Shown piece after piece: positions 15,304-44,218 of a DNA stretch of 64,000 nucleotides; the stretch's first letter is position 1, and each line of letters starts with the position of its first letter. A program made the translations under genes and the position numbers. The notes beneath the pieces were generated by a model. It was not told where the DNA came from. It searched no databases and was given only the letters and a program-made list of their open reading frames with translations. The stretch comes from an uncultured Alphaproteobacteria bacterium. Its GTDB lineage: Bacteria > Pseudomonadota > Alphaproteobacteria > Rs-D84. Where the stretch lies: NCBI GenBank assembly GCA_944393245.1, contig CALXZM010000003.1:14151-78150 (forward strand). Reading direction: 5' to 3'.

Positions 15304-16254
15304 TTACTGTTTTAATTTCCCGTCTGAACCCATAATATTTTTTATTTCGTCAATGCAATTATTGTAAATATTCTGGCGACCGGCGGTTAAATAATCGCGT
15401 GGATTAAAACTGGCCGGGTTTTGTGCCAATGTTTCCCGTACGCCCGCCGTAAATGCCAGGCGCGAATCACTGTCCACGTTGATTTTGCAAATGTTCATTT
15501 GAACAGCACGGCGCAGTTGGTCCGCTGCAATGCCCATCGCGTTTGACATTTTTCCGCCATATTCATTTATAGTTTTGATAAAATTTTGTGGAATACTGGA
15601 CGCGCCATGTAAAACCAATGGAAAATCTGGCAATTGTTTTGCAACCCTGTCCAGAATATCAAAGCGTAATTCTGTGTCGGCCAATTTGCGTTTGTATGCG
15701 CCGTGACTGGTACCGATTGCAATTGCCAATGAATCTATGTTTGTGGCGTTTACAAAATTTACGACGTCGTCGGGATTGGTATAATTTGATGTGGTACTGT
15801 GTGTATTTTCATCTTCGACCCCGGACAGAACGCCCAGTTCCGCTTCGACTGTTACATCATATTTATGTGCGTATTCTGTTACAGTTCGTGCCAAATCAAC
15901 GTTTGCATCAAATGGCAATTTTGACCCATCAATCATCACAGATGAAAAACCAATCTGGATTGCGTGAACGCATGATTCGAACGATGAACCATGATCCAGG
16001 TGCAGTGCGACCCCATTATGTTCGCGCAGGTTTAGTCCCCAAATCATTCCGCGCAATAAATCGTCGCCCATGTATTTTAAGGCTGATTCAGATACCGCCA
16101 AAATTACAGGACTGTGCGTATCGTGTGCTGCATTTATAATTGCGGTCAATGTTTCCATATTGTAAAAATTAAATGCGGGTACAGCATAATGGCGCGCCAA
16201 CGCGTCCATAAACATGTTTGTAGTATTAACCAATCCAAAATCTTTATAGTCCAT
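15304..16254 (-). CDS. fba: Class II fructose-1,6-bisphosphate aldolase
   Basis: 316 aa. Zn-dependent class II aldolase blocks (HLDHG, GTSHGAYK, VLHGASS). Confidence 0.85.
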   Translation of the reverse strand: MDYKDFGLVNTTNMFMDALARHYAVPAFNFYNMETLTAIINAAHDTHSPVILAVSESALKYMGDDLLRGMIWGLNLREHNGVALHLDHGSSFESCVHAIQIGFSSVMIDGSKLPFDANVDLARTVTEYAHKYDVTVEAELGVLSGVEDENTHSTTSNYTNPDDVVNFVNATNIDSLAIAIGTSHGAYKRKLADTELRFDILDRVAKQLPDFPLVLHGASSIPQNFIKTINEYGGKMSNAMGIAADQLRRAVQMNICKINVDSDSRLAFTAGVRETLAQNPASFNPRDYLTAGRQNIYNNCIDEIKNIMGSDGKLKQ

Positions 16255-16356: not shown

Positions 16357-16385
16357 TTGACAATTAAATGATTTTGTCATATATT
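16357..16385 (+). promoter_or_regulatory. Near-consensus sigma70 promoter TTGACA-N17-TATATT overlapped by palindrome TGACAAT-N8-ATTGTCA (candidate operator)
   Basis: -35 TTGACA at 16357-16362, 17-nt spacer, -10 TATATT at 16380-16385. The inverted repeat TGACAATTAAATGATTTTGTCA spans 16358-16379. It lies ~290 nt upstream of the lipoprotein gene at 16677. Confidence 0.45.
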
Positions 16386-16676
16386 TATATGTGAATTAAG
16401 TCGGCACACATGTATATTATGTGGGGTTAACGTAAATGATAATGATGAACAATCTGTATCGTTTTTATTCTGGTGGTTCGCCCGATTGGCCGCCATGCGA
16501 CAAATGTCGTAATGGGGGGGAAACGGGGGATGAAAAATCATCGAAAACGTTGACCGCTGAATATGCTGTTGTGTCAAATGTGGGATAAAGTCTGGGAATT
16601 TTTTCCAGGCTTTTTTTGTATTTGTTAGGAAAAGTCCCAACAGATACATTGCCAAGAAAAAATAAAGGGGGCAACC

Positions 16677-17135
16677 ATGCAATTTAAAAAAACGGTACCG
16701 TATAAACTGAAACGCATAATCCCGATGTTGGGTATTGCGGGCGCATCATTGTTTATGGGCGGCTGCGAGAAAGAAGAACCATTGCGTGATGTAGAATTGC
16801 ATTTTAGTCCCGATAATTATTTTGAGATAAGCTATGAAGACCGTGGTGAATATGGCATTAGTGAATTATCAAAAGCATATGTAAATGAACCGACCGTTGG
16901 TACAATATATCTGGTGCCGGATGGGGATTGGGCAACCTGTAAAACAGATATAATAAATGAAGTACGCAGAAGATATTTAGAGCCATTATTTGACTATTCA
17001 CCAAAGTTTAAGGGCAAAGGCGATTTTAATTTTTATCCTGGTGCCGCATCCCAGGTATCCCAAGACAGTTTATGGTTTGTTAATAAGGGATTCACAATAA
17101 ACAAATATCGTCCATTAAGTGATTATCAACGTTAA
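16677..17135 (+). CDS. Lipoprotein, paralog 1 of a tandem pair (unknown family)
   Basis: Signal peptide with lipobox (ASLFMGG|C). 152 aa. About 65% identical to the next gene. RBS AAGGGGG. Confidence 0.65.
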   Translation: MQFKKTVPYKLKRIIPMLGIAGASLFMGGCEKEEPLRDVELHFSPDNYFEISYEDRGEYGISELSKAYVNEPTVGTIYLVPDGDWATCKTDIINEVRRRYLEPLFDYSPKFKGKGDFNFYPGAASQVSQDSLWFVNKGFTINKYRPLSDYQR

Positions 17136-17163: not shown

Positions 17164-17622
17164 ATGAAATTCACAAAAACGGTACCGTACAAACTGAAAC
17201 GCATAATCCCGATGTTGGGTATTGCGGGCGCATCATTGTTTATGGGCGGATGTGAAAAGGAAAAGCCATTGCGCGATGTGGAATTGCATTTTAATCGTGA
17301 TGATTTTTCTACAATAGTATATCAAGACCGGGGGGAAATTTTCATTAGTGAATTAGCAAAAGCATATGCAAATGATCCGACGGTTGGTACCATATATCTG
17401 ATACCTGATGGCGAGTGGGGTACCTATGTTGCCATTAGTATAAGTGATATGCGTCAAACTTTTTTGGAGCCAATGTTTAATTATTCGCCAAAATTTAAGG
17501 GCAAAGGCGATTTTAATTTTTATCCTGGTGCCGCATCAAAAATACCACAGGATAGTTTGTGGTTTGTCAGCAAGGGTTTTACAATAAACAAATATCGCCC
17601 ATTAAGTGATTATCAACGTTAA
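17164..17622 (+). CDS. Lipoprotein, paralog 2 of a tandem pair (unknown family)
   Basis: Identical N-terminal 30 aa and lipobox, and conserved C-terminus SPKFKGKGDFNFYPGAAS...GFTINKYRPLSDYQR. RBS AAGGAG. Confidence 0.65.
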   Translation: MKFTKTVPYKLKRIIPMLGIAGASLFMGGCEKEKPLRDVELHFNRDDFSTIVYQDRGEIFISELAKAYANDPTVGTIYLIPDGEWGTYVAISISDMRQTFLEPMFNYSPKFKGKGDFNFYPGAASKIPQDSLWFVSKGFTINKYRPLSDYQR

Positions 17623-17625
17623 AAA

Positions 17626-17650
17626 ATCCGGCATAATGCCGGATTTTTTA
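17626..17650 (+). terminator. Intrinsic terminator after the lipoprotein pair (TCCGGC-ATAAT-GCCGGA + T6)
   Basis: GC-rich stem followed by TTTTTT. Confidence 0.6.
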
Positions 17651-17757
17651 TGCCGAAAACAACCCCCGGTTTGGATTTGGTGGTTTTATTATTTGACAGT
17701 ACGGCGGAAAACGTGCAAAAATTTAATTGTAAAAACGCTATACGGCGGGGGAAATGA

Positions 17758-18957
17758 ATGAGAAAGATTTTTTTCACACTATTATGTATATGTATCTTTA
17801 ACACCGGCGCAATCGCCGAGTTTGTGACCGATTGCACAATGGATGAAAATGGTAACTGTTCCGAGGGATGTGAACCCAATAATAAGGGTACCACCTGCTT
17901 GTTATGCCAACCCGGTTCTTATAAATCGGGTAATAATAAAAATGCGTGTACACAATGTGTTTTCCCAGCTGGTGCAATATACAAGGAAAATAATCAATCC
18001 GGATTGATCACAGCGTGTGAATGGACTGCAACATGTACAGAGGGGCAATATTGGGTTAACGGTAGTTCGGAATCCGGTTCGGATACATTTGGTTGTACCG
18101 CGTGTCCAGGCAATTATGGACCAATGGAGGGGAGTGGGGAATTAAGTGTAAGTGGCAGTGGATACACAGCATCATCTGATATAACAAGTGGTGATGTTAA
18201 TAACAGATGCGATGCCAATGTTATAACATTGCTGTTGCACAAAAATATTGACCTGAGTGACACTATGTATGCAGATCATGATGTGAAGGCCAAATATGGG
18301 GTGGGATTTAAAATCCACGACGATGATGATGATTGGGCTGAAACGATAAATGGGGCAATGCAACCAAATAAGAAAATTATTCAATTTAATGGGTATAACT
18401 CTGCAAGTGCGTGTAATGCTGATATGTATTTTGATACACGTGGGAAATTACAACAAACTTGGGATGCTTTGTTTGGTTTGGGAAATCCTGCAAATTTATA
18501 TGCGTGCTATACAACGTCAGAAGTTACAATAAATTATTTTGACCCAGGTGATGCAACAGAACCATGGCGTACGGATACGGTTGGGATTGATAATGGCTTT
18601 GTGTATAATGTGGTGGATTATGGTGGAACGTATGAAGCTTCTGGACAAGTGTTTTTATCATATACATGCAATACAGGGGATGGGGGATCGTGCGGGAGTG
18701 CGCAACCGGGCAATCCGTTGCGGATTTTAGTGATAGATGCGACAGAAATAAATTTGGTGGCGCAGTTTGGTGCCTGTCCAGCTGGGTCTTATTGTACAGG
18801 TGGTAATAAAAAACCGTGTCCCGCCGGAACAACCAGTGATGCTGGGTCCCAAACGGTTCGTGATTGTTATATGGTTGCTGGGGAAAATGGAACGCAGTTT
18901 TGTGATGTTAATGGATGTTTTACTTTACCGGGTACTGGTAATATTGCATACGAATAA
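17758..18957 (+). CDS. Secreted Cys-rich protein with ephrin-receptor/TNFR-like (GCC2/GCC3-type) CxxCxxGxY repeats
   Basis: Signal peptide MRKIFFTLLCICIFNTGAIA. Repeats CLLCQPGSYKSGNNKNACTQC, CTACPGNYGP and CPAGSYCTGGNKKPCPAGTTS fit the C-x2-C-x2-G-x-Y...C-x2-C pattern of eukaryotic ephrin-receptor-like Cys-rich domains. Also an Asp-rich stretch HDDDDDW. Confidence 0.55.
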   Translation: MRKIFFTLLCICIFNTGAIAEFVTDCTMDENGNCSEGCEPNNKGTTCLLCQPGSYKSGNNKNACTQCVFPAGAIYKENNQSGLITACEWTATCTEGQYWVNGSSESGSDTFGCTACPGNYGPMEGSGELSVSGSGYTASSDITSGDVNNRCDANVITLLLHKNIDLSDTMYADHDVKAKYGVGFKIHDDDDDWAETINGAMQPNKKIIQFNGYNSASACNADMYFDTRGKLQQTWDALFGLGNPANLYACYTTSEVTINYFDPGDATEPWRTDTVGIDNGFVYNVVDYGGTYEASGQVFLSYTCNTGDGGSCGSAQPGNPLRILVIDATEINLVAQFGACPAGSYCTGGNKKPCPAGTTSDAGSQTVRDCYMVAGENGTQFCDVNGCFTLPGTGNIAYE

Positions 18958-19061: not shown

Positions 19062-19442
19062 ATGAAAAAAGTTCTGGTTTCTGTAATCGCGTTGACATCC
19101 CTGGCGGGCTGTGGCGCATATTATGATTATTACAAGGGTGATATCAGATATACTCAGGATGGCCCAGATTGTATTTATTATGCCAATGAACATGGGCGCA
19201 ATTATTCCCAATATATCGGTGGTTTGGACACGGGTAAAAAAATTGTTTATCGCAATACTCGGTGTGAAGATTTGTATGCGTTGGACAATTTTGGCCAGGA
19301 ACCACGTCGTGATCGTAAAATCATAACACCCGCCGCACAAATTACACCGTGTTCAAAATGCAGTGAACAAGTGTCTTGTAATTCCTGTGCACAGGCACAA
19401 CCGGTTTTGAAGCGCAGATACATTATCGTTCCGGCGATGTAA
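19062..19442 (+). CDS. Small Cys-containing lipoprotein (unknown function)
   Basis: MKKVLVSVIALTSLAG|C lipobox, and a C-terminal CSKCSEQVSCNSC cluster. RBS AAGGA. Start at ATG 19062 rather than the ORF-track start. Confidence 0.5.
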   Translation: MKKVLVSVIALTSLAGCGAYYDYYKGDIRYTQDGPDCIYYANEHGRNYSQYIGGLDTGKKIVYRNTRCEDLYALDNFGQEPRRDRKIITPAAQITPCSKCSEQVSCNSCAQAQPVLKRRYIIVPAM

Positions 19443-19559
19443 TATGAATTGTTGCATAAATGCAGCGGCACATAAATTGTGCCGCTGTTTTTATGTGTTT
19501 ATGTCGTTGCACAGTCGTCAAAATTGTGATAAAATTGTATAAAAAGAAAGGGGTTTTAT

Positions 19560-19940
19560 ATGAAAAAACTGTTACAGAAATTCGGTGTCGCTGGTATCGT
19601 TGTTTTGGCGGGTGGGGCCGCTGCATTGGCGGCCGGTCCCGCTGGTGTTGGGGTAGATCAATCCGGATTATGCGCACTGATTGGACAAATGCAGGGTGTG
19701 TTTAAAATTTTGCGTACATTGGCGTTTGTTGGTGCGGCGTTCATTATCGCTGGATGGGCGTGGGGTTATATTTCCAGTGGCAAGTTTGAAATGGAAGATT
19801 TGCGTAAAAAGGGTACCGGTATGCTGGTCGGGTTCGTTTTGTTATTCGGTATCGGTATAGTGTTACAGTTCTTCCTGTCGTCGGCCGGTTTGGAATTGAT
19901 TGGCTGCCAGGATGTGATTTTGAACTGGGGCAATGTGTAA
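19560..19940 (+). CDS. VirB2/TrbC-like type IV secretion pilin candidate (orphan)
   Basis: 126 aa. Long signal peptide, then two hydrophobic helices separated by a short charged loop (GLCALIGQMQGVFKILRTLAFVGAAFIIAGWAWGY / GMLVGFVLLFGIGIVLQFFL). Size and topology match the VirB2/TrbC family. No other T4SS genes lie nearby. Confidence 0.45.
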   Translation: MKKLLQKFGVAGIVVLAGGAAALAAGPAGVGVDQSGLCALIGQMQGVFKILRTLAFVGAAFIIAGWAWGYISSGKFEMEDLRKKGTGMLVGFVLLFGIGIVLQFFLSSAGLELIGCQDVILNWGNV

Positions 19941-19995: not shown

Positions 19996-20931
19996 TTATC
20001 TTAAACTTTGTTTTGCAAATTTATTTATAAATTTTCGTTCCATTTTCTTTAATTCACCAGTTAGTTGGGAAATTGACTTTTGGGATATGTCCTGTTCCGG
20101 GGGACGGTTTGTTTGCTGAATCATTTTTACGCGGTTGTTTATTAATTCTGTGTACAGGATTTCTGTGAATTTGTTGAAATTCATGTTCGGGTTTTCGTCC
20201 AGTTTGGATATGGCGCGATTTAACGCATTCCTGCGCGCCAGTAATGAATGAACGCCCATATAATCATATATTTTGCCACGAATGTTATAGTAATCTTTTA
20301 TTGTATTTATGTCCGATGTGTAAAAAAATGCGCGGTGTAACATGTTATTAAATTGGCGCATGTTTGCATTGTTTCTGTGTGCGATGCCGTTTATTATTTT
20401 GTTTGATTGTGTCAGGGCGTTGCGCTGATAAATTCGGGCGAATTTATATGACATGTTATATAATTCTGTGAATTTTATGCCGGGATTCATAAAGTATAAT
20501 TGGGCAAATATCATTCGGCCCCATGGTTGTAATATTTTCCAACATGCATATCTGGTCAATTTGGCGTCTGGGCCATTTTTACGCAATGTGTTGCCAAATA
20601 TGCTGTTGATTATGTAATCATGATTGATTTTTACAGCATGGTCGGTATAGAAAGATTCAAATGTTTTTGGTTGTGCAATGCCGTTTGGTGTTTGGGGATA
20701 AACTGATTTAAAATCTGTTGGATGAATGTTTTCTAAAACAGTATCCATTATATTGTCATGTTTGCCCACATATGATTCACCAAATAAATTATACAAATCC
20801 GAAAACAACCAATATTCTGTATCGTTTAATTCAGTATCGGTTGGAAATAATGTCGGTTGAATATTTTCGTTTACACGATGTTTTGTGCTTTGCAGGATTC
20901 TGTACGTTGATTCATATATTTTTGATGCCAT
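19996..20931 (-). CDS. DinD/Bro-N-like protein (DNA-damage-inducible protein D homolog; phage antirepressor-type N-terminal domain)
   Basis: 311 aa. EYWLFSDLYNLFGESYVG...LTRYACWKILQ resembles the Bro-N core of E. coli DinD (EFWSARDLAPLLDY...SRYACYLVVQ). The C-terminal IYDYMGVHSLLARRNALNRAISKL resembles DinD ILDHMGSTELAANLFRATQTEEKL. The 4-bp gap to the upstream RHH gene indicates an operon. Confidence 0.5.
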   Translation of the reverse strand: MASKIYESTYRILQSTKHRVNENIQPTLFPTDTELNDTEYWLFSDLYNLFGESYVGKHDNIMDTVLENIHPTDFKSVYPQTPNGIAQPKTFESFYTDHAVKINHDYIINSIFGNTLRKNGPDAKLTRYACWKILQPWGRMIFAQLYFMNPGIKFTELYNMSYKFARIYQRNALTQSNKIINGIAHRNNANMRQFNNMLHRAFFYTSDINTIKDYYNIRGKIYDYMGVHSLLARRNALNRAISKLDENPNMNFNKFTEILYTELINNRVKMIQQTNRPPEQDISQKSISQLTGELKKMERKFINKFAKQSLR

Positions 20932-20934
20932 TTT

Positions 20935-21189
20935 TTACACCAATGTTTGTTGTTGCGGGGCAGGTTGGGCGTCAGCACTGACCAATGAATACAGGACAGA
21001 TGATATTAGTAATTGGTATGGAACGTGTTGTTGTTCTGCCAGTTTTTTTATGCGTTCCAATATTTGATGGGGAATTCGCATGTTTATGACACTGTCTGAT
21101 TTGTTAAATGCGCGATATGCTGCGTATTCTTTTAACAGTGCTTCGATATTCATTATGAATAATTGCTGCATTACGTTTGGCATACACAA
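20935..21189 (-). CDS. Ribbon-helix-helix DNA-binding protein, BrnA-antitoxin-like
   Basis: The C-terminal half INMRIPHQILERIKKLAEQQHVPYQLLISSVLYSLV matches the BrnA/CopG-type motif (..itiRld.dvlewfk..a...g.gYQtlIN.vLreyv). TTG/ATG start. No BrnT-like toxin ORF is found upstream. Confidence 0.5.
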   Translation of the reverse strand: MCMPNVMQQLFIMNIEALLKEYAAYRAFNKSDSVINMRIPHQILERIKKLAEQQHVPYQLLISSVLYSLVSADAQPAPQQQTLV

Positions 21190-27512: not shown

Positions 27513-27532
27513 TGTATAGGTAGAGAGAATTG

Positions 27533-30280
27533 ATGAAAAACGATCTGAAAATTTCGACACTGACAATTATTTGCGTCTTGTGTACGGCGGTATCTGGTGC
27601 ATATGGTGCATCGTCGGTTCGTTCGTTTGGTGGCAGTGGAACGTATGCCAGTGCATCTGACGCGGCGGCGGCCAATACCAGTTCGACAACTTCTGTTCGT
27701 GGTGGGTCTGTGCGTGTAAATCCGGGATCTGGTGTTTCGGGTTCAAGCACGACTATCGATGCCGGTACAACAACAAATGGCCGTGTTGCGACAACACCGC
27801 GTTTGTCAATTGGGCATTATCTGGGTGGCGGAACGTCAATTAGTGGTGGCAGTTCACTGCGTCCGCAAACGCCGGGATCTTCGTCTGGTGGTTCTTCGTC
27901 CGGTGGTGATGGTGGGTTGGATCCAGATGTTGCGGCGGGACTGCGTCAACAGGTTGATCAATTACAGCGTGATGTCGAAGATTTGCGTAATGCTGATGAT
28001 AATATAAATGACCAGTTGTTGGATAAACAGGATGCTTTAATTCCTGGTGATGATGGTTATATCATTATAGATGATGCTACGAACGAAATCTTTGTTGATG
28101 TCGATGCGTTGCAGGGTGCGTTGGAAACCGTTGCGGGCAAAGATGGGCGTGAAGTTGAATTGGGTTCCAATGATACGCATTTGTTGTGGCGTTATGTCGG
28201 TGAAAGTGGTTGGCATGATTTGATTGCGATTGCTGATATTACCGGTCCCCAGGGCCCCCAGGGTGAAAAGGGTGAAAAGGGTGATCCGGGTGATGCGGCC
28301 AATCTGGATGCTTATTCAACAACTGAACAAATGAATCAGGCGATTGGTAATGCGATTGCCGCGCTGGCGGATGTTTATGCGACCAAGGCAGAATTGGCCA
28401 ATTATGCAACGTCTGATGATTTATCGCGTGGTTTGGCGGCCAAGGCAAATGCAGCAGATGTTTACACCAAGGCAGAGGTTTATAACAAGACCGAAGTTGA
28501 TGACAAGGTTGCTGATATTGTTGCCGGTGATATGGACGGGGCATTGGCCAATAAAGCCGATAAAACGTATGTAGATACACAACTGGCGACCAAGGCCGAT
28601 AAAACAGAATTGGCAAATTATGCCACCACGGAATCTGTTACTGCGCTGGATTCCGAAATGGACGAAGTGAACGCCACTGCGACCGAGGCGGCATTAGGTG
28701 CCGCACAGGCGTTGAGTGGCCTGACCGGCAAAGAAGATACATCAAATAAGACACAAACGCTGACAAACAGTGCAACACAGTATCCGTCTGGTGCGGCGGT
28801 AACGACGGCGTTGGAACAAAAGGCTGATAAGTCTGAATTAGAAAATTACGTCACGTCAGATGAATTGGCAGGCAAGGCGGATCAAAGCGCGTTGGATAAT
28901 TTGACTGGACGTGTTTCCGCGAACGAAGCGGGTATATCTGAATTAAATACCACGATGGGGTCGGGTGAATTGACCACGTCTGACAAAACGGTTTTGGGCG
29001 CAATCAATGAATTGAAATCCAAAACGGACGGTATGGCGACCGACGGTAATTTTGAAGAAATGAATAGCAAGATTACCGAAATGGAAGGCAAACTGGATGG
29101 CAAGCAGGATGTTGCCAATATGGCCCAGACCGTGACCGACGATGAAACAAAATATCCGTCGTCTGCGGCGGTTTATGGCGAATTGGAAACCAAGGCAAAT
29201 GCGTCCGATTTGGCGAACTATGCAACCACTGAAACCGTGAACCAGATAACAGAAAATGTCACCAATGTTACGCAAACGGTAACGCAGTTGGGTGATACAA
29301 TTAATAATGCTGAAACGGGACTGAAAAAACAGGTCGAAGATGCCGTTACAGCTGCGAATACCGCCAAAGAGGCGGCCGATGCGGCGACATCTGCGGTTGC
29401 GGGCAAGCAAGATGCATTGGGATTCACCCCGGAAAATGTTGCGAACAAGAGTTCAACTGTTGTTGATGATGAATCAAAATATCCATCATCTGCGGCGGTT
29501 TATGGCGAATTGGAAACCAAGGCAAATGTTTCCGATTTGGCGAACTATGCAACAACTGAAACCGTGAACCAGATTGAACAAAATGTGACCAACGTCACGC
29601 AAAAGGTTAATGAAATCACTAATCCGGATACTGGATTGGCATCCCAGGTTACAAATATCACAAATGTAATTGGCGATGCGGATTCCGGTCTGGTCAAGGA
29701 TGTTGCCGATGCGGCGGCGGCGGCTGATGCGGCACAACAAACCGCAACAGAGGCTAAAAACACCGCTGATGCGGCGCAAACAACTGCTGACGAGGCAAAG
29801 GCCGGTCTGGATGCCAAGGAAGACAAGTCCAACAAGGCCACGTCTATTACGGGGGAAAACCAATCGTCTGCGACGGTGTATCCGTCGGTTGGGGCGATTA
29901 CCCAATGGACGAATGATCGCATAAATGAATTATCGACCGAGGGCCTGCCCGTGAATCCGGATAATATTGGTGCGGGTGCGATTACCACAGAAAAAATAGC
30001 AGATAATGCCGTTACAGAAGATAAATTGAGTGACGAATTAAATACTGAAATTGATGGCAAGGCAAATACGGCCGATTTGGGGGCGTTGGCGACCAAGGAT
30101 CAGATTACAAATGCGGATGTTGCGGATGACGCGGCAATCGCGAAATCAAAGCTGGCATCGGATGTTCAGGCGGCTTTGGACAAGGCTGCTGATGCTGTAA
30201 GTATGGCGGGTGCGTCTGAAAACAGCGTACTGGGTACCGACGACGAAGGTAATCCGGTCTGGTATGAAATAGCAATGTAA
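27533..30280 (+). CDS. Large secreted repetitive fibre-like protein (paralog 1) with collagen-like triplet segment and tail-fibre-like repeat modules
   Basis: Signal peptide, Ser/Gly/Thr-rich low-complexity N-terminal region, THLLWRYVGESGWHDLIAIADITGPQGPQGEKGEKGDPGD (collagen-like G-X-Y preceded by a W..Y.G...W..L motif), and many ELANYATTE / KYPSSAAVYGELETKA / AITTEKIADNAVTEDKL repeats. The C-terminal module YPSVGAITQWTN...LPVNPDNIG is shared with paralog 2. Confidence 0.7.
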   Translation: MKNDLKISTLTIICVLCTAVSGAYGASSVRSFGGSGTYASASDAAAANTSSTTSVRGGSVRVNPGSGVSGSSTTIDAGTTTNGRVATTPRLSIGHYLGGGTSISGGSSLRPQTPGSSSGGSSSGGDGGLDPDVAAGLRQQVDQLQRDVEDLRNADDNINDQLLDKQDALIPGDDGYIIIDDATNEIFVDVDALQGALETVAGKDGREVELGSNDTHLLWRYVGESGWHDLIAIADITGPQGPQGEKGEKGDPGDAANLDAYSTTEQMNQAIGNAIAALADVYATKAELANYATSDDLSRGLAAKANAADVYTKAEVYNKTEVDDKVADIVAGDMDGALANKADKTYVDTQLATKADKTELANYATTESVTALDSEMDEVNATATEAALGAAQALSGLTGKEDTSNKTQTLTNSATQYPSGAAVTTALEQKADKSELENYVTSDELAGKADQSALDNLTGRVSANEAGISELNTTMGSGELTTSDKTVLGAINELKSKTDGMATDGNFEEMNSKITEMEGKLDGKQDVANMAQTVTDDETKYPSSAAVYGELETKANASDLANYATTETVNQITENVTNVTQTVTQLGDTINNAETGLKKQVEDAVTAANTAKEAADAATSAVAGKQDALGFTPENVANKSSTVVDDESKYPSSAAVYGELETKANVSDLANYATTETVNQIEQNVTNVTQKVNEITNPDTGLASQVTNITNVIGDADSGLVKDVADAAAAADAAQQTATEAKNTADAAQTTADEAKAGLDAKEDKSNKATSITGENQSSATVYPSVGAITQWTNDRINELSTEGLPVNPDNIGAGAITTEKIADNAVTEDKLSDELNTEIDGKANTADLGALATKDQITNADVADDAAIAKSKLASDVQAALDKAADAVSMAGASENSVLGTDDEGNPVWYEIAM

Positions 30281-30294
30281 GGGGAATTTGAAAA

Positions 30295-32133
30295 ATGAAA
30301 AAACAAAATATTGTATTTTCTGGATTTATGGCGGCGATACTGTTCAGTGCCGGTGCGGCCAACGCTGCGACCCAAATTGCCAGCAAGCAGTACGTTGATA
30401 ATCGTGAAACGTCAATCCTGCAAACGGTCAGCAATACATATGAAACCAAGGAAAATGTTACAAACCTGACTGAACAGGTAACCCAGTTGGATGATACAAT
30501 CAATAATGAAGATACTGGTCTGGCGGCCAAGGTTGACGATGCTGTCGCTGCCGCGGCCGCAGCGAAACAAACGGCTGATACCGCCAAATCAACTGCAACC
30601 GGCGCACAAAGCGCGGTAGAGGCATTGGGGGCAACCGTTGGTAATGCTGAATCTGGTTTGGTCAAAGATGTAAATGATTTGCAAACAACTGTTGGTCAGT
30701 TGGATACAGAAATGGATTCTAAATTGGATTCTGCAACCGCTGCATCAACATATGAAGTTATATCAAACAAGGCGGCTGAAATCAACGAAGGTAATCAAAC
30801 ATCGCCAACAGCATATCCGTCAGTGGGCGCAATCGTTCAATGGACTAATAAAAAGATTGCGGACTTGTCAGATACTGGATTGCCAGTTAACCCCGGTAAT
30901 ATCAATGATGGAACTATTGCTGGCAGTAAATTGGAAAATGGCGCGGTCACAACTGATAAAATCGCCGATGATGCGGTGACATCTGACAAAATCGCCGATG
31001 ATGCCGTTGGTTCGGGCCAGATTGCAGACGGTGCGGTTGGTACTGATGATATTGCCGATGGTGCCGTGACATCCGATAAATTGGATGGAACATTGGCGGG
31101 ACAAATTGCCGATATTTCTGGCAAGCAGGACATTGCAATGGGTGTCGGTCACGAAAATCATATCGTGACAACTGATGCGTCCGGTAATATTACATCCGCC
31201 GCGACAATCGGCCAGGACAAGGTTACTGGTTTGACCACGGCATTGGCGGGCAAGGCCAGCACAGACGATATTCCGACCGCGGTTTCGGAACTGACAAACG
31301 ACAGCGGTTATTTGACAAATGCCGATATGACCGGCTATGCCAAAACAACTGATTTGGATGCCAAACAGAACAAAAATGTTGGCAGTGAAAATAATGGTAA
31401 AATTTTGACCGTGGGCGCGGATGGTAATATCACAACATCCGCCACAATTGCCCAGTCAAAGGTCGAAGGATTGGAAACCGCATTGGCGGGTAAATTGGAA
31501 TCTGATGATTTGACGGGCTATGTAACCAGTGAATCGTTAACAACCACGTTGGACGATTATGCCACAACAACGGATTTGGGCGCGAAACAAGATAAATTAA
31601 CCGCAACTGGTGCCGCAAATCAACCCGTATATGTTAATGAACAGGGCGTTGTAACGGCCGGTAACACAATTCCGACGGTAACAACAAATATTACCACGGG
31701 CATCACAGATGCGGCCCAGGCGGGCGCAGTGGCCGATAAATTGGCACAAAAGGAAGATGCCGCGAACAAGGTCAAGACGATTAGTGATGGCAATAAATCG
31801 TCTGAAACACTGTTCCCGACAATCGGTGCGATTACCACATGGACTGACCAACAAATTCAAAAATTGTCTGATACTGGTATACCCGTTAATCCGGACAATA
31901 TTGGCAATAGTGCGATAACGACTGATAAAATTGCCAATGGTGCTGTTACAACAGAAAAATTGGCGGACGATTCCGTGACAGAAGACAAACTGAGCAATGA
32001 TGTCGTTGCATCTATTGATGCAAAGTTACCGGCGCCGGATGCGGACTGTGTTGCGGATTCAAATCTGTGCGTATTATCTGTGACACCAGGGGGTGATTTG
32101 GCGTGGGTTGCGGTAACACAACCGGCGGAATAA
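30295..32133 (+). CDS. Secreted repetitive fibre-like protein (paralog 2)
   Basis: Signal peptide ending ANAATQIASKQYVD. Repeats (K/R)IADDAVTSDKIADDAVGSGQIADGAVGTDDIADGAVTSDKL. Two copies of the YPS(V/T)IGAI.(Q/T)WT...LSDTG(L/I)PVNP.NI module. Trp-containing C-terminus (LAWVAVTQPAE). 14-bp gap from paralog 1. Confidence 0.7.
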   Translation: MKKQNIVFSGFMAAILFSAGAANAATQIASKQYVDNRETSILQTVSNTYETKENVTNLTEQVTQLDDTINNEDTGLAAKVDDAVAAAAAAKQTADTAKSTATGAQSAVEALGATVGNAESGLVKDVNDLQTTVGQLDTEMDSKLDSATAASTYEVISNKAAEINEGNQTSPTAYPSVGAIVQWTNKKIADLSDTGLPVNPGNINDGTIAGSKLENGAVTTDKIADDAVTSDKIADDAVGSGQIADGAVGTDDIADGAVTSDKLDGTLAGQIADISGKQDIAMGVGHENHIVTTDASGNITSAATIGQDKVTGLTTALAGKASTDDIPTAVSELTNDSGYLTNADMTGYAKTTDLDAKQNKNVGSENNGKILTVGADGNITTSATIAQSKVEGLETALAGKLESDDLTGYVTSESLTTTLDDYATTTDLGAKQDKLTATGAANQPVYVNEQGVVTAGNTIPTVTTNITTGITDAAQAGAVADKLAQKEDAANKVKTISDGNKSSETLFPTIGAITTWTDQQIQKLSDTGIPVNPDNIGNSAITTDKIANGAVTTEKLADDSVTEDKLSNDVVASIDAKLPAPDADCVADSNLCVLSVTPGGDLAWVAVTQPAE

Positions 32134-32190
32134 CCGAAACAAAGGATTAAAAAAACAACAAATAAAAAAAGAAAGAAAGGAAAGAAAAAA

Positions 32191-33816
32191 ATGAAAAAAT
32201 TAACAGCAGGTATTTTTGCAACATTATTGGCCGTTGTTTCGGTCGATGGGGCATACGCCGCAATCGCATCCAAGGGATACGTTGATGAAAAGGTTGGAAC
32301 AGTTACAACTGCACTTGGAAATAAAGCTGATAAAACAGAATTGGGTAATTATGCAACAACAGCAGCCTTGACTTCCGGTTTGGCGGGTAAGTTAGATACT
32401 GAGGGTACGGCTGCAAAAGCTACAGCAGATGCTTCTGGCAATGTAATCACAACAACATATGCAACAAAAACAGAATTAAACGCAGCTGAAAAGATTGCCA
32501 ATCGTGTGACAACGGTTTCTGATGCTTCTGATGATACACATTATCCAACGGCAAAAGCGGTTTGGGACGTTGTTCAGGCCGAAACATCTGACATTGCGTC
32601 CAGTGGTGATTTGAGTGCGTTGACAACGCGTGTCGGTACATTGGAAAAAGCGTCTGCGACACATGCGACAAAGACAGAATTAACAGATGGTCTGGCCGAA
32701 AAATTGGATACTGCAACCGCGGCAACAACGTATGCAACCAAAACGGAATTGGCTGGAAAGCAAGATAAAATTGCCGGTGCACAGTTAGAGGCATTGAATT
32801 CAGGAATTACCGCGGACAAGGTAGAGGCATATGATGGTTATGCCGCACAGATTTCTGGCAAGTTAGACGCTGCGGGTACGGCTGCAAAAGCTACAGCAGA
32901 TGCTTCTGGCAATGTAATCACAACAACATATGCAACAAAAACAGAATTAGGTGCAAAAGCGAATACCGCTGATTTGGGTGCATTGGCAACAAAAGATACA
33001 GTAAGCGCAACTGAAATTGATGCAGATGCAGTTACAACAGAAAAAATCCTGGATGCTAATGTAACAAAAGCGAAATTGGCATCTGATATACAGACATCTT
33101 TGGGTAAAGCGGATTCTGCTTTACAGCAAGCTGATTTGGCGGATTATGCAAAGACTGCAGAGGTAGCAAGTACATATGAAACCAAAGAAAACGCAGCTTC
33201 AACATATGAAACAAAAGCAAATGCTTCTGCAACATATGAAACAAAAGCAAATGCTTCTGCAACATATGAAACAAAAGCAAATGCTTCTGCAACGTATGCA
33301 ACAAAAGAAGAAATTAAAGGTATGGCAACTGATGCAAACCTGGCACTGAAACAGGATAAAACAGATAATTCATTGGAAACAACAAGCAAGACAGTTGTTG
33401 GGGCTATCAATGAAGTAAAGACAACCGCTGACGGTGCAAGCACTGCTGCAAAAGCAGCACAAACTGCGGCTGATTCAAAATTGCCGACCGCCACATATAA
33501 CACCCAGGTTGGTACTGTTTCAGCAGAAAATATGGGAACAACGGCAAAAACGGTTGTGACCGCTATCAAGGAAGTAGCAGGTGAAGCGGAGGCTGCACAA
33601 TCTGCAGCGTCTGCGGCAGATTCTAAAGCTCAGGCAGCACAAAGTGCAGCAGAAGCCGCTGATTCTAAAGCTCAAGCAGCACAAACAACTGCTAATGCAG
33701 CTATCCCAAAAGTAAATGCGGAAGGTAGTGACGGTAAGTACGTTTTGACTGCAACGGCTGCAAATGGCGTTGCTACATACAAATGGGAACTTATCGAACG
33801 TGGGTCTGCTGAATAA
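32191..33816 (+). CDS. Secreted repetitive fibre-like protein (paralog 3)
   Basis: Signal peptide plus AAIASKGYVDEKV. Internal exact 75-bp duplication (DASGNVITTTYATKTEL module), 30-bp tandem repeats (TYETKANASA x4-5), C-terminus ...ATYKWELIERGSAE. Confidence 0.7.
   Translation: MKKLTAGIFATLLAVVSVDGAYAAIASKGYVDEKVGTVTTALGNKADKTELGNYATTAALTSGLAGKLDTEGTAAKATADASGNVITTTYATKTELNAAEKIANRVTTVSDASDDTHYPTAKAVWDVVQAETSDIASSGDLSALTTRVGTLEKASATHATKTELTDGLAEKLDTATAATTYATKTELAGKQDKIAGAQLEALNSGITADKVEAYDGYAAQISGKLDAAGTAAKATADASGNVITTTYATKTELGAKANTADLGALATKDTVSATEIDADAVTTEKILDANVTKAKLASDIQTSLGKADSALQQADLADYAKTAEVASTYETKENAASTYETKANASATYETKANASATYETKANASATYATKEEIKGMATDANLALKQDKTDNSLETTSKTVVGAINEVKTTADGASTAAKAAQTAADSKLPTATYNTQVGTVSAENMGTTAKTVVTAIKEVAGEAEAAQSAASAADSKAQAAQSAAEAADSKAQAAQTTANAAIPKVNAEGSDGKYVLTATAANGVATYKWELIERGSAE
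33172..33321 (+). repeat. 30-bp tandem repeat (about 5 units, 3 perfect) inside paralog 3, encoding TYETKANASA
   Basis: ACATATGAAACAAAAGCAAATGCTTCTGCA repeated head-to-tail. Flanking units are diverged by 3-6 substitutions. Confidence 0.85.
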
Positions 33817-33927
33817 TGATTTGTAAAAATGTGTGCGGTGTTAAATGTGCACCGCACACAGGTAAAAAAAACAGATTGCGATAAACGAACAGTGGAACGA
33901 AACAGATACTTTGGGTAGAATACGGAT

Positions 33928-34836
33928 ATGATAAAGTCAAAAGGCATTTTCGCAGTTTCATTTATAGCTATGATGGTGGCGGGTGGCGCATATGCAAATA
34001 TTGCGTCACAGGGCTATGTCGATCAGCAGATTGATACCAGACAGGTTGCCGGTGATTATGCGACGAACACCGCATTGGGGACTGTTCGTACAACCGCAAC
34101 AAATGCCCAATCCGCAGCCGCTGCGGCAAAAACCGCGGCAGATGACGCACAAGATGCGGCAGATGCCGCCGCCAGTGCTGCTGCCACTGCACAGCAAACC
34201 GCCAATGCCAAGGTTTCAACCGCACAGGGTAGTTCTGCCGCTAATAAGGCCGTAATTACAAATGCGTCTGGTAATATCACAACGGGGACAATTTCGTCGG
34301 CGATGATTACAGATGGCACGATAACCAACGCTGATATTTCGGCCAGTGCGGCGATTGCCCAATCAAAAATTTCTGGTTTAACGACTGCGTTGGCGGGCAA
34401 GGCAAATACTGCTGATGTTCCGACAAAAACAAGTGATTTAACAAACGACAGCGGGTTTATTACTGCCGAAGAATTGCCCGATGGATATACTTTGCCGGTG
34501 GCGACAGCAGACACTTTGGGTGGTGTGAAATCTGGTGGTGATATTACTGTGGCGACCAGTGGTGCCGTTACCGTGAACAGTGCAACCAAGGCCGACAGTG
34601 CAACAGCCGCCGCAAGTGCCACCAAGGCGACACAGGACGCGTCCGGGAATGTGATTACAACCACATATGCAACCAAGGCACAGTTGACTGCATTAGATAG
34701 TTCAACATCTGGTTCTGGTGCGGTTGTGACAGATGTTTCACAAACAGATGGCAAGGTTACTGTTACCAAGGGCAATGTTCAAATCCCTGTGGGCAGTGCA
34801 ACCGCAACAACATATGCGACCATTTGGGTTGAATAA
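33928..34836 (+). CDS. Secreted repetitive fibre-like protein (paralog 4, shortest)
   Basis: Signal peptide plus ANIASQGYVDQQI. Shares the DASGNVITTTYATKAQL module and the GLTTALAGKA(N/S)T.D(V/I)PT module with paralogs 2 and 3. Trp-containing C-terminus TYATIWVE. Confidence 0.7.
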   Translation: MIKSKGIFAVSFIAMMVAGGAYANIASQGYVDQQIDTRQVAGDYATNTALGTVRTTATNAQSAAAAAKTAADDAQDAADAAASAAATAQQTANAKVSTAQGSSAANKAVITNASGNITTGTISSAMITDGTITNADISASAAIAQSKISGLTTALAGKANTADVPTKTSDLTNDSGFITAEELPDGYTLPVATADTLGGVKSGGDITVATSGAVTVNSATKADSATAAASATKATQDASGNVITTTYATKAQLTALDSSTSGSGAVVTDVSQTDGKVTVTKGNVQIPVGSATATTYATIWVE

Positions 34837-39513: not shown

Positions 39514-40512
39514 ATGGCGCATCAATTTTTCTTTAATCCGTTCATATTGGATAATCTGCCTGCGCCGTCCGCCGGGTTTGATGTTGTCCAGGATTTGTCT
39601 GAACCGCGTTTGCGCATGTATGTTACCAGTCGCGGGGTAAAAACTTTTTTCGTGCGCAAACGTGTTCATGGACGTGATAAAAGAATAATTATTGGTAATT
39701 ATCCAGATGTGGATATAGAACAGGCGCGTGGTGCCGTCCCAGGTGTGTTGGCAACCGCCATGGAAAAACCACATGTCCACAGAAAAAAAATAACACTGAA
39801 AAAATTCATGGATTTATATCTGGAAAAACGGGTGCGTCGCAACAGTTATTCGCGATATAAATTGGAACGTGCGATAAAACATCATTTGGGGCCGTTAATG
39901 GATAAAAATATTTCTGATATAACGACCGATGATGTCGCAAATGTAATTGATAATATTGGTGGACGTGCGATTGCTGCGCGTATGCAGGAATTTTTGCAAA
40001 GTGTTTTTAAGTATGCGATTGATTCTGGATATGCAAAACAAAATCCAGTTGCGGTATTACCAAAAATCCAACAAACACGTCGTGTGCGACCACTGAACCG
40101 TGCCGGTTTTCACAGATTGTTGGATGCGATTAATCGTGAACCTGATTTAAATTTGCGTGCGGCGTTTTTAATGTTGGTTTATGCGTTTGCACCAAAAAGC
40201 CAGGTTTTTTCCATGCAGTGGTCTGATTTGGATTTTAATCATGATACATGGGGCGACAGACCCTTGTCTGATATGGCAATTGTTTTGTTACAGGATTTGC
40301 CCCAGGATGGAATATGGGTTTTCCCGGGGCGGGGACGTGGGCATTTGACTGATCCGCGTGTGGCATGGCGACGCGTGGCGAAAAATGCAGGAATTCCAAA
40401 TTTGACCATGGATGATGTGCATAAATTCTTGGTACGACAATTGACTTGGACGTCTGATCGTGAAGATTTTAGGGCCAATATGAATGCGTTGTTGGCTGAT
40501 GTTATGGCGTAA
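39514..40512 (+). pseudogene. Degenerate tyrosine-recombinase (P4-type integrase-like) gene; catalytic residues apparently lost
   Basis: The N-terminal arm-binding-like region (RLRMYVTSRGVKTFFVRKRV) and the integrase SAM-like/core blocks (FMDLYLEKRV...; MQWSDLDF) are recognisable. The box I Arg is replaced (APKSQVF instead of LRRGEL), the box II HxxR is degenerate, and there is no C-terminal Tyr. No downstream continuation in other frames. Confidence 0.5.

Positions 40513-44141: not shown

Positions 44142-44218
<77 letters not shown>

Follow-up and report, generated by a model that had tools for sequence, protein, structure and literature searches.

Bacterial loci that encode strain-variable surface proteins between conserved flanks are kept up by homologous recombination. 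The variant-specific surface proteins (VSPs) of Giardia and the immobilization antigens of ciliates, which are compared here by analogy alone, are variable, cysteine-rich surface antigens with conserved C-termini. Proteins containing Flg_new repeats are regarded as adhesin-like and fast-evolving in the gut (PMC9723798), and the B-repeat is a beta-grasp domain for protein interaction (PMC8900821). With these systems we compare a gene located at positions 17758-18957 (forward strand) of a 64,000-nucleotide stretch of contig CALXZM010000003.1 (assembly GCA_944393245.1), hereafter the window, which belongs to an uncultured gut alphaproteobacterium of the order Rs-D84 (Candidatus Enterousia group). 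On balance, we take its product to be a secreted binding protein of adhesin-like character, predicted to be specific to this lineage of reduced-genome gut Alphaproteobacteria and hypervariable among its strains. The protein consists of a signal peptide, a TNFR/ephrin-receptor-like stalk, two Flg_new/InlB B-repeats, an ephrin-receptor-like unit and a conserved tail. It diverges far faster than its neighbours, and its alleles have a mosaic make-up and show signs of recombination, with raised ratios of nonsynonymous to synonymous substitution rates (dN/dS).

The open reading frame (ORF) had previously been described, in a sequence-only reading of the window, as coding for a secreted protein with ephrin-receptor- or TNFR-like cysteine-rich repeats. 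Its coordinates were exact: the ORF begins with ATG downstream of a G-rich ribosome-binding site and encodes 399 amino acids (aa). Residues 1-20 (17758-17817; this and all other features of the protein lie on the forward strand) form a Sec-type signal peptide of the class A allele type, MRKIFFTLLCICIFNTGAIA, with E as the next residue; the segment is modelled with low confidence (pLDDT), and direct reading reveals no lipobox. The protein contains 24 cysteines, 22 of which are in the mature part. Three repeats of the pattern C-x2-C-x2-G-x-Y-x(5-8)-C-x2-C had been proposed, and only one of them, CLLCQPGSYKSGNNKNACTQC (aa 47-67), fits in full; the other two match sub-motifs, CTACPGNY having x1 where the pattern needs x2 and no trailing CxxC, and CPAGSYC...PCPAGTTS lacking the leading CxxC. 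The significance of these motifs was estimated from 20,000 composition-preserving shuffles of the protein. The full pattern was observed once against 0.00015 expected, C-x2-C-x(1,2)-G-x-[YFW] twice against 0.03 (P = 1.5e-4) and CPxG[ST][YFWT] twice against 0.004 (P < 5e-5). The motif elements characteristic of PF07699 occur in the protein as CLLCQPGSY, CTACPGNY, CPAGSYC and CPAGTTS. Direct reading of the N-terminal region further shows four C-x(2,5)-C-x(1,4)-G-x(1,2)-Y units, at C47, C64, C87 and C113.

That region (aa 21-152; 17818-18213) is a cysteine-rich stalk of predicted ephrin-receptor-like/TNFR-like hairpin units with 12 cysteines, where relatives and the family consensus match PF07699 at the corresponding place. 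It is followed by two repeats of a bacterial type that make up about half of the protein (aa 153-338) and that the sequence-only reading had overlooked. In hhalign comparisons with bona fide Flg_new repeats, the first (aa 153-253; 18214-18516) aligned over its full length (98.4%, E 9e-15, 74 columns), identifying it as a Flg_new or Listeria-Bacteroides repeat of the beta-grasp type, and the second (aa 254-338; 18517-18771) aligned as a divergent member (85.6%, E 6e-6, 73 columns), in agreement with the Flg_new matches seen there in relatives. Further downstream lies the C-terminal ephrin-receptor-like unit, CPAGSYC-x7-CPAGTTS-x9-C (aa 339-371; 18772-18870), whose cysteines are 99-100% conserved. 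The N- and C-terminal cysteine modules aligned with each other in hhalign (70-87%, E 4e-5 to 4e-6), while the negative controls, in which the cysteine modules were compared to Flg_new, gave 0.2-0.3%. Across 75 family members the 16 cysteines of the two modules are 88-100% conserved. The protein ends with the tail YMVxGxNGTxFCDxNGCFxLPGxGNI (aa 372-399 plus stop; 18871-18957), a proposed docking element. It is the best conserved part of close alleles and recurs in proteins whose N-terminal parts are quite unlike one another (L003, L004 and L005). An AlphaFold model of the protein, computed from a 14-sequence alignment, is all-beta (pLDDT 76.4, pTM 0.57). Foldseek searches with this model retrieved the InlB B-repeat (2y5p; prob 0.98, TM 0.71) together with tandem beta-grasp pairs, consistent with the beta-grasp-like fold of the InlB repeat. 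The modelled stalk matched stacks of TNFR cysteine-rich domains (CRDs; OX40, DR5 and 4-1BB) at ~20% identity over ~100 columns, with weak E-values of 0.02-0.2.

At the level of the single sequence, neither domain type is detectable by routine means. The protein had no match in Pfam (even at E<=1), NCBIfam, PADLOC, PHROGs or among PDB sequences. The Pfam check with PF07699 and the TNFR profiles, on which the sequence-only reading had staked its domain assignment, therefore literally went against it: there were no matches to PF07699 (curated cutoff 23.1 bits) at E<=1, none to PF00020 (TNFR_c6; 29.4 bits) and none to PF09479 (Flg_new; 27 bits). At the level of the family the assignment fared better. 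A word-indexed search of 5.8 billion proteins returned only 13 homologues, none of them named or carrying a Pfam domain, and their alignment revealed ~25 invariant cysteines and a near-identical C-terminal block, PCPAGTTS..G....CYMVxGxNGTxFCDxNGCFxLPGxGNI. Nor was any member named in any source for the 90% cluster of the protein and the two related clusters that were looked up. An exhaustive profile search yielded 752 cluster representatives at E<=1e-3 (279 at E<=1e-10), and among the best 150 of the 752 roughly 80-100 were full-length proteins of ~400 aa. Giant proteins also matched the family profile, with profile positions ~190-265 matching up to 20 times; all eight of those tested were Flg_new (PF09479, Listeria-Bacteroides repeat) proteins, with E-values of 1e-20 to 1e-73.

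When 75 full-length relatives were scanned against Pfam, 31 matched PF07699 (Ephrin_rec_like; counted at E<=0.1, best E 1.3e-6), 17 matched PF09479 (best E 1.7e-17) and 12 matched PF23091 (TNFR_ELAPOR1_6th; best E 2.6e-4). A single relative matched TNFR_c6 (E 0.005), and the family consensus scored 13.9 bits on that profile. On PF07699 the family majority consensus reached 29.1 bits, in two stretches, and the matches of individual relatives fell in either the N-terminal (~40-71) or the C-terminal (~317-356) cysteine module. The homologue L003, from an alphaproteobacterial metagenome-assembled genome (MAG), scored 59.6 bits on Flg_new and 30.4 bits over the whole PF07699 model, the latter match coinciding with a C-terminal module 54% identical to that of our protein. 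A large-database search with the profile of the C-terminal module returned only six short fragments, including P0204, which scored 36.9 bits on PF07699. A strong match was also obtained in L007, an unrelated beta-proteobacterial contig, with seven repeats and 67.6 bits; the ephrin-receptor-like module thus occurs also in other bacteria. Among the titles listed by literature searches on GCC2_GCC3/PF07699, none dealt with its occurrence in bacteria.

The divergence of the gene stands out against its surroundings. The L002 locus has the same gene order as the window, and the encoded proteins are closely similar: DnaN is 98% identical at the amino acid level, Efp 93%, TolB 92% and Fba 84%, the downstream lipoprotein 84%, lipoprotein A 76% and the membrane protein 71%. 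Locus-specific genes other than the one under study are 71-85% identical, whereas its own orthologue retains only 30% amino acid identity. A finer view is provided by L010, a near-identical strain in which fba is 98.6% identical in nucleotide sequence (dN/dS 0.05). There, the lipoprotein is only about 55% identical, and residues 21-86 of the cysteine-rich protein have been replaced by a block swapped between alleles (27% amino acid and 41% nucleotide identity). Over residues 87-399 the identity is 89-95% and dN/dS ranges from about 0.5 to 4; these dN/dS values are suggestive only, because there are few substitutions per segment.

Among 13 near-alleles, the differences are arranged as multi-residue patches in varying combinations; 967 of 4,656 informative site pairs failed the four-gamete test, and the minimum number of recombination events (Rm) is at least 12. 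Variation is unevenly spread along the protein. Over the whole family, the C-terminal 60 residues are the most conserved (43-47% mean pairwise identity vs 22-29% elsewhere). In the group of close alleles (A1) the C-terminal tail (82% mean pairwise identity) and the signal peptide (81%) are ahead of the C-terminal PF07699 unit (68%) and of the N-terminal stalk and the B-repeats (48-56%). Neither paralogues nor silent cassettes of the gene were detected in the 64-kb window by tblastn and blastn, and no part of the gene is repeated at the DNA level there, for which reason a diversity-generating retroelement and cassette switching were both rejected as the source of the variation; a retroelement is further at odds with variation that extends over the whole protein rather than over a short C-terminal variable region. 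The protein matched neither phages nor plasmids, and an origin from such elements was rejected; nor did it match defence and phage protein families.

The gene does not stand alone. It is the last member of a conserved cassette embedded among core genes, with the same order in every locus examined: a 50-aa ORF, one or two lipoproteins (136-155 aa) and the cysteine-rich protein. The cassette occurs in two contexts, either between fba and tolB, as in the window, or between a gene for a giant cysteine-rich protein and pth, an outer-membrane protein (OMP) gene and polA. It starts with a strong promoter-like site, TTGACA-17-TATATT (11/12; 16357-16385, +), which precedes the 50-aa ORF in a region conserved with L001. 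The ORF itself (MIMMNNLYRFYSGGSPDWPPCDKCRNGG...; 16436-16588, +) shows synonymous third-position changes among its differences from L001. It was called as a gene in L010, L011, L012, L015, L016, L017 and L019, with 98% identity to its counterpart in L010 and 44-64% to those of other loci. Wherever DNA upstream of a cassette was fetched, the ORF was found to precede the lipoprotein gene. No Pfam, PADLOC or PHROG match, signal peptide or transmembrane (TM) segment was found in it. An RNA was considered for this conserved stretch and rejected, as Rfam returned nothing for the conserved intergenic regions (its sole match in the window is one tRNA) and the 50-aa ORF accounts for the conservation better.

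Directly after the ORF, a terminator-like hairpin with a T-run (16587-16613, +) is conserved in L001. Two tandem paralogues follow, 76% identical to each other: lipoprotein A (152 aa, type I, lipobox ...FMGGC; 16677-17135, +) and lipoprotein B (152 aa, type I; 17164-17622, +), the latter immediately upstream of the gene for the cysteine-rich protein. Their family is lineage-restricted, with 39 detectable homologues, none annotated and none with a Pfam domain. Lipoprotein B was modelled as a confident alpha/beta fold (core pLDDT about 95), and no convincing solved relative was found. The lipoprotein gene has its own terminator, a hairpin ATCCGGCA-TAA-TGCCGGAT followed by TTTTT (17626-17649, +), read from the sequence and identical in L001, and the cysteine-rich protein its own promoter-like site, TTGACA-18-AAAAAT with a TG element (17693-17722, +). 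The intergenic stretch that contains the latter is 89% identical to that of L001, as compared with ~34% for the proteins. Two types of lipoprotein and two N-terminal classes of the cysteine-rich protein can be distinguished, and in 10 of 10 loci examined the directly upstream lipoprotein matches the class, type I being paired with class A and type II with class B; the pairing may reflect either co-adaptation or plain linkage. Downstream of the cassette, at 19062-19940, are genes for a cysteine-containing lipoprotein and for a membrane protein with two TM segments, each of 126 aa; the membrane protein is VirB2/TrbC-like in appearance but has no Pfam hit. Both genes are retained only where the cassette lies between fba and tolB (L002, L013 and L017), and they therefore do not belong to its core.

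The protein itself is encoded on a metagenome scaffold of 380 kb. The loci related to the one in the window are from gut alphaproteobacterial MAGs, including Ca. Enterousia intestinigallinarum. Genomes of the order Rs-D84/Enterousia are mostly smaller than 1 Mb and lack most of biosynthesis and respiration, and the organisms have been inferred to depend on a partner as obligate symbionts or parasites (PMC12306168). The window opens with a probable dnaA (ORF 112-1407, read from its translation), and gyrB, dnaJ, uvrC, dnaN, ppa, efp, fba and tolB are the core genes around the cassette. TolB, an OmpA-family protein, AsmA and an OMP beta-barrel protein, all encoded in the window, indicate a diderm envelope. 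The class II fructose-bisphosphate aldolase at 15304-16254 (- strand; 414 bits to NF005481) is an enzyme that Rs-D84 genomes are said to lack (PMC12306168). Another locus of the Rs-D84 type, comprising the cassette and the giant cysteine-rich protein, is found on a 716,531-bp chromosome titled Muribaculaceae (L005; OZ246409.1); the title is probably wrong, and the genome that of an alphaproteobacterium with very little DNA.

How might an adhesin-like protein of this kind operate? The variable stalk and B-repeats would be exposed on the outside, where they would bind a putative ligand on a partner, be it host mucosa, a protist or another microbe, while the conserved C-terminal module would dock the protein to a conserved component of the envelope, possibly the co-encoded lipoprotein. 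Resistance to gut proteases could come from the presumed disulfide scaffold. Recombination arms for the swapping of alleles between strains may be provided by the conserved flanks (promoter, signal peptide and C-terminus), and immunity, phages or variation of the partner could exert diversifying selection on the alleles.

Several observations weigh against this picture, and its weakest link is localisation. The protein lacks a lipobox, a beta-barrel, a known C-terminal sorting domain and an identified route of export across the outer membrane; in a diderm bacterium it could consequently stay in the periplasm. LPGTG in the tail was considered as a sortase signal and rejected: its T is not conserved (LPGSG and LPGLG also occur), and the protein ends 5-12 residues later without a TM segment. 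Likewise, no match to PF18962 (Por_Secre_tail), the C-terminal domain of type IX secretion system (T9SS) cargo, was found in the protein. The domain assignments are those of remote homology, the protein being below the curated Pfam cutoffs for both domain types, and the structure model is based on only 14 sequences. The dN/dS values come from a single pair and do not separate positive selection from relaxed constraint. Finally, the perfect agreement between lipoprotein type and N-terminal class may amount to linkage, and the loci are not independent, several of them carrying near-identical alleles.

We have considered three other explanations, all of which we judge less likely. The least unlikely of them makes use of the same gap in localisation: the protein would be a periplasmic or structural component of the envelope without an outward role, and its rapid divergence would reflect weak constraint on a disulfide scaffold and drift in bottlenecked symbionts. 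Besides the lack of an identified outer-membrane targeting signal or secretion system, this is consistent with dN/dS mostly near or below 1 and with the accelerated protein evolution often seen in symbionts with reduced genomes. However, the high conservation of neighbouring genes in these genomes (84-98% amino acid identity; dN/dS 0.05 for fba) shows that the acceleration is specific to this locus. Block replacement and mosaic patches point to exchange of alleles, not to drift, and strict conservation of the cysteine scaffold, the C-terminal tail and the regulatory flank indicates that the gene is maintained. Improbable, in our view, is a toxin-immunity or bacteriocin-like pair, in which the cysteine-rich protein would act as an antibacterial or anti-partner toxin, the lipoprotein or lipoproteins would provide immunity, and competition between strains would generate the diversity of alleles. 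The strict co-occurrence of lipoprotein type and N-terminal class, the duplication of the lipoprotein gene in some strains and the variation of both genes between near-identical strains speak for such a pair. Yet no toxin, enzyme or pore-forming domain was found in the protein; its C-terminus is the most conserved part and the N-terminal and central parts are variable, which is the reverse of polymorphic toxins; the lipoprotein gene is upstream and split off by its own terminator and promoter; and in L002 a 76%-identical lipoprotein is paired with a 30%-identical cysteine-rich protein. Moreover, Flg_new repeats and CRDs are typical of binding proteins.

The third explanation, which we regard as very improbable, is mimicry: the cysteine modules would have been acquired from a eukaryotic host, and the protein would be an effector or decoy that imitates ephrin-receptor or TNFR ectodomains and manipulates host signalling. 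In its favour are the PF07699/TNFR-like nature of the modules at the level of the family, the TNFR ectodomains among the structural matches and the probable dependence of the lineage on a partner. As set out above, though, the protein itself has no direct Pfam hit and its structural matches to TNFRs are weak, and half of it is made up of Flg_new repeats typical of prokaryotes. No close relative from a eukaryote came to light, and nothing pointed to a eukaryotic donor; all related loci are bacterial, six of the seven on contigs with neighbours of the Rs-D84 type. In addition, hypervariability fits poorly with the imitation of a conserved host receptor. The sequence-only reading had called the domain eukaryotic-like and typical of host-interaction proteins in intracellular or amoeba-associated bacteria, for which no support emerged; the closest relatives are all from gut Alphaproteobacteria. 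With strong PF07699 repeats in the beta-proteobacterial L007 and no eukaryotic relative found, the eukaryotic-like label is unjustified. The suggestion of a role in host interaction, on the other hand, is a reasonable hypothesis, since the lineage is inferred to be partner-dependent (PMC12306168).

Further genes in the window and in related loci deserve mention. A second cysteine-rich secreted protein had been reported at 1551-2861 and does exist (436 aa, signal peptide, 5.3% cysteine, P/T-rich linker and C-terminal hydrophobic stretch); comparison confirmed that it is unrelated to the adhesin-like protein, and it has neither a significant Pfam hit nor a homologue in the fetched loci. The giant cysteine-rich secreted protein of the second context (863-1097 aa; CREVYYSCMDEFCANKD...), encoded directly upstream of the cassette at 3810-7103 in L001 and 3391-6501 in L005 and present also in L011, L015 and L019, is similarly without a significant Pfam hit and without a homologue in the window. 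The adhesin-like protein, the protein encoded at 1551-2861 and the giant proteins next to the cassette in L001 and L005 showed no kinship with one another. At 27530-34836 there are four tandem secreted Ala/Thr-rich proteins (916, 612, 541 and 302 aa) without Pfam hits, three of which share the mature N-terminus IAS[KQ]xYVD; the composition of this region is unusual (GC about 0.47, AT skew about +0.2), and the proteins may be surface fibrils. A DinD-like protein at 19996-21183 (- strand), assigned to the PADLOC candidate defence family PDC-S13 (E 6e-15), adjoins a CopG-type antitoxin and is only 51% identical in L002, being thus a fairly variable locus as well. A phage-type integrase gene (39514-40512) lies about 3.6 kb from the sole tRNA gene of the window (44142-44215), and the two may be the remnant of an integrated element.

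Rs-D84 bacteria (Ca. Enterousia) are widespread in animal guts, and no interaction factor of theirs has so far been named (PMC12306168); the cassette offers a concrete candidate. The family of the adhesin-like protein carries no name in any source, and the protein and its closest homologues are devoid of Pfam domains. It joins two classes of binding modules in an architecture that we found only in the Rs-D84 lineage. Its gene evolves faster than any other of a core region that is conserved apart from it, and its lipoprotein partner varies along with it. It is tempting to extend the adhesin reading to the cassette as a whole, possible but doubtful as this step is: the 50-aa ORF, the variable lipoprotein and the cysteine-rich/B-repeat protein would form an apparatus of Rs-D84 for recognition of and attachment to a partner, in which the lipoprotein displays or docks the cysteine-rich protein through matched allele classes (I/A and II/B) and the shuffling of alleles at a single locus sets host or partner specificity. 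If true, this would represent an undescribed system of surface display in a diderm without known routes of adhesin export. More generally, secreted bacterial proteins can contain ephrin-receptor-like modules too diverged for routine annotation, which calls for caution in taking such motifs as evidence of eukaryotic origin.

Comparison with the known systems places the protein close to several of them and within none. With the ephrin-receptor-like family PF07699 (formerly GCC2_GCC3), the ELAPOR1-like family PF23091 and the TNFR CRDs (OX40, DR5, 4-1BB and EDAR) it has in common short predicted hairpins of the putative disulfide type and the spacing C-x2-C-P-x-G-[ST]-[YT]...C; relatives and the consensus reach the PF07699 cutoff, and the modelled stalk superposes on TNFR CRD stacks. 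It differs in that it is itself below detection, its units are degenerate and vary in spacing, the first cysteine is absent from the C-terminal unit, and the units flank prokaryotic B-repeats with no TM or kinase context. The two central beta-grasp repeats, predicted secretion, quick evolution and a gut organism as the source liken it to the Flg_new/InlB B-repeat (PF09479) adhesin-like proteins of gut bacteria and archaea (PMC9723798). Here, however, there are two highly divergent repeats below the Pfam cutoff, with extra cysteines, placed between cysteine-rich modules; anchoring parts such as leucine-rich repeats, GW, LPXTG or T9SS elements are absent, and the source is a diderm alphaproteobacterium. 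Polymorphic toxins, with their conserved N-terminus, variable C-terminal toxin and downstream immunity gene, are unlike the present locus, which has none of these hallmarks and a lipoprotein gene that is upstream and separately transcribed. By analogy, the Giardia VSPs and ciliate antigens resemble the protein in a CxxC-rich, presumably protease-resistant scaffold, a variable and presumably exposed part, a conserved C-terminus, the gut setting and the many alleles; unlike them, it is encoded only once per genome window, has no silent copies in the vicinity, lacks a TM anchor and varies between strains by recombination rather than by switching of expression. Like the strain-variable antigen loci of bacteria, the present locus has flanks and a signal peptide that are conserved, alleles that are mosaic, site pairs that fail the four-gamete test and an excess of divergence confined to the locus; it is set apart from them by a protein family, a partner lipoprotein and a 50-aa ORF that are all undescribed.

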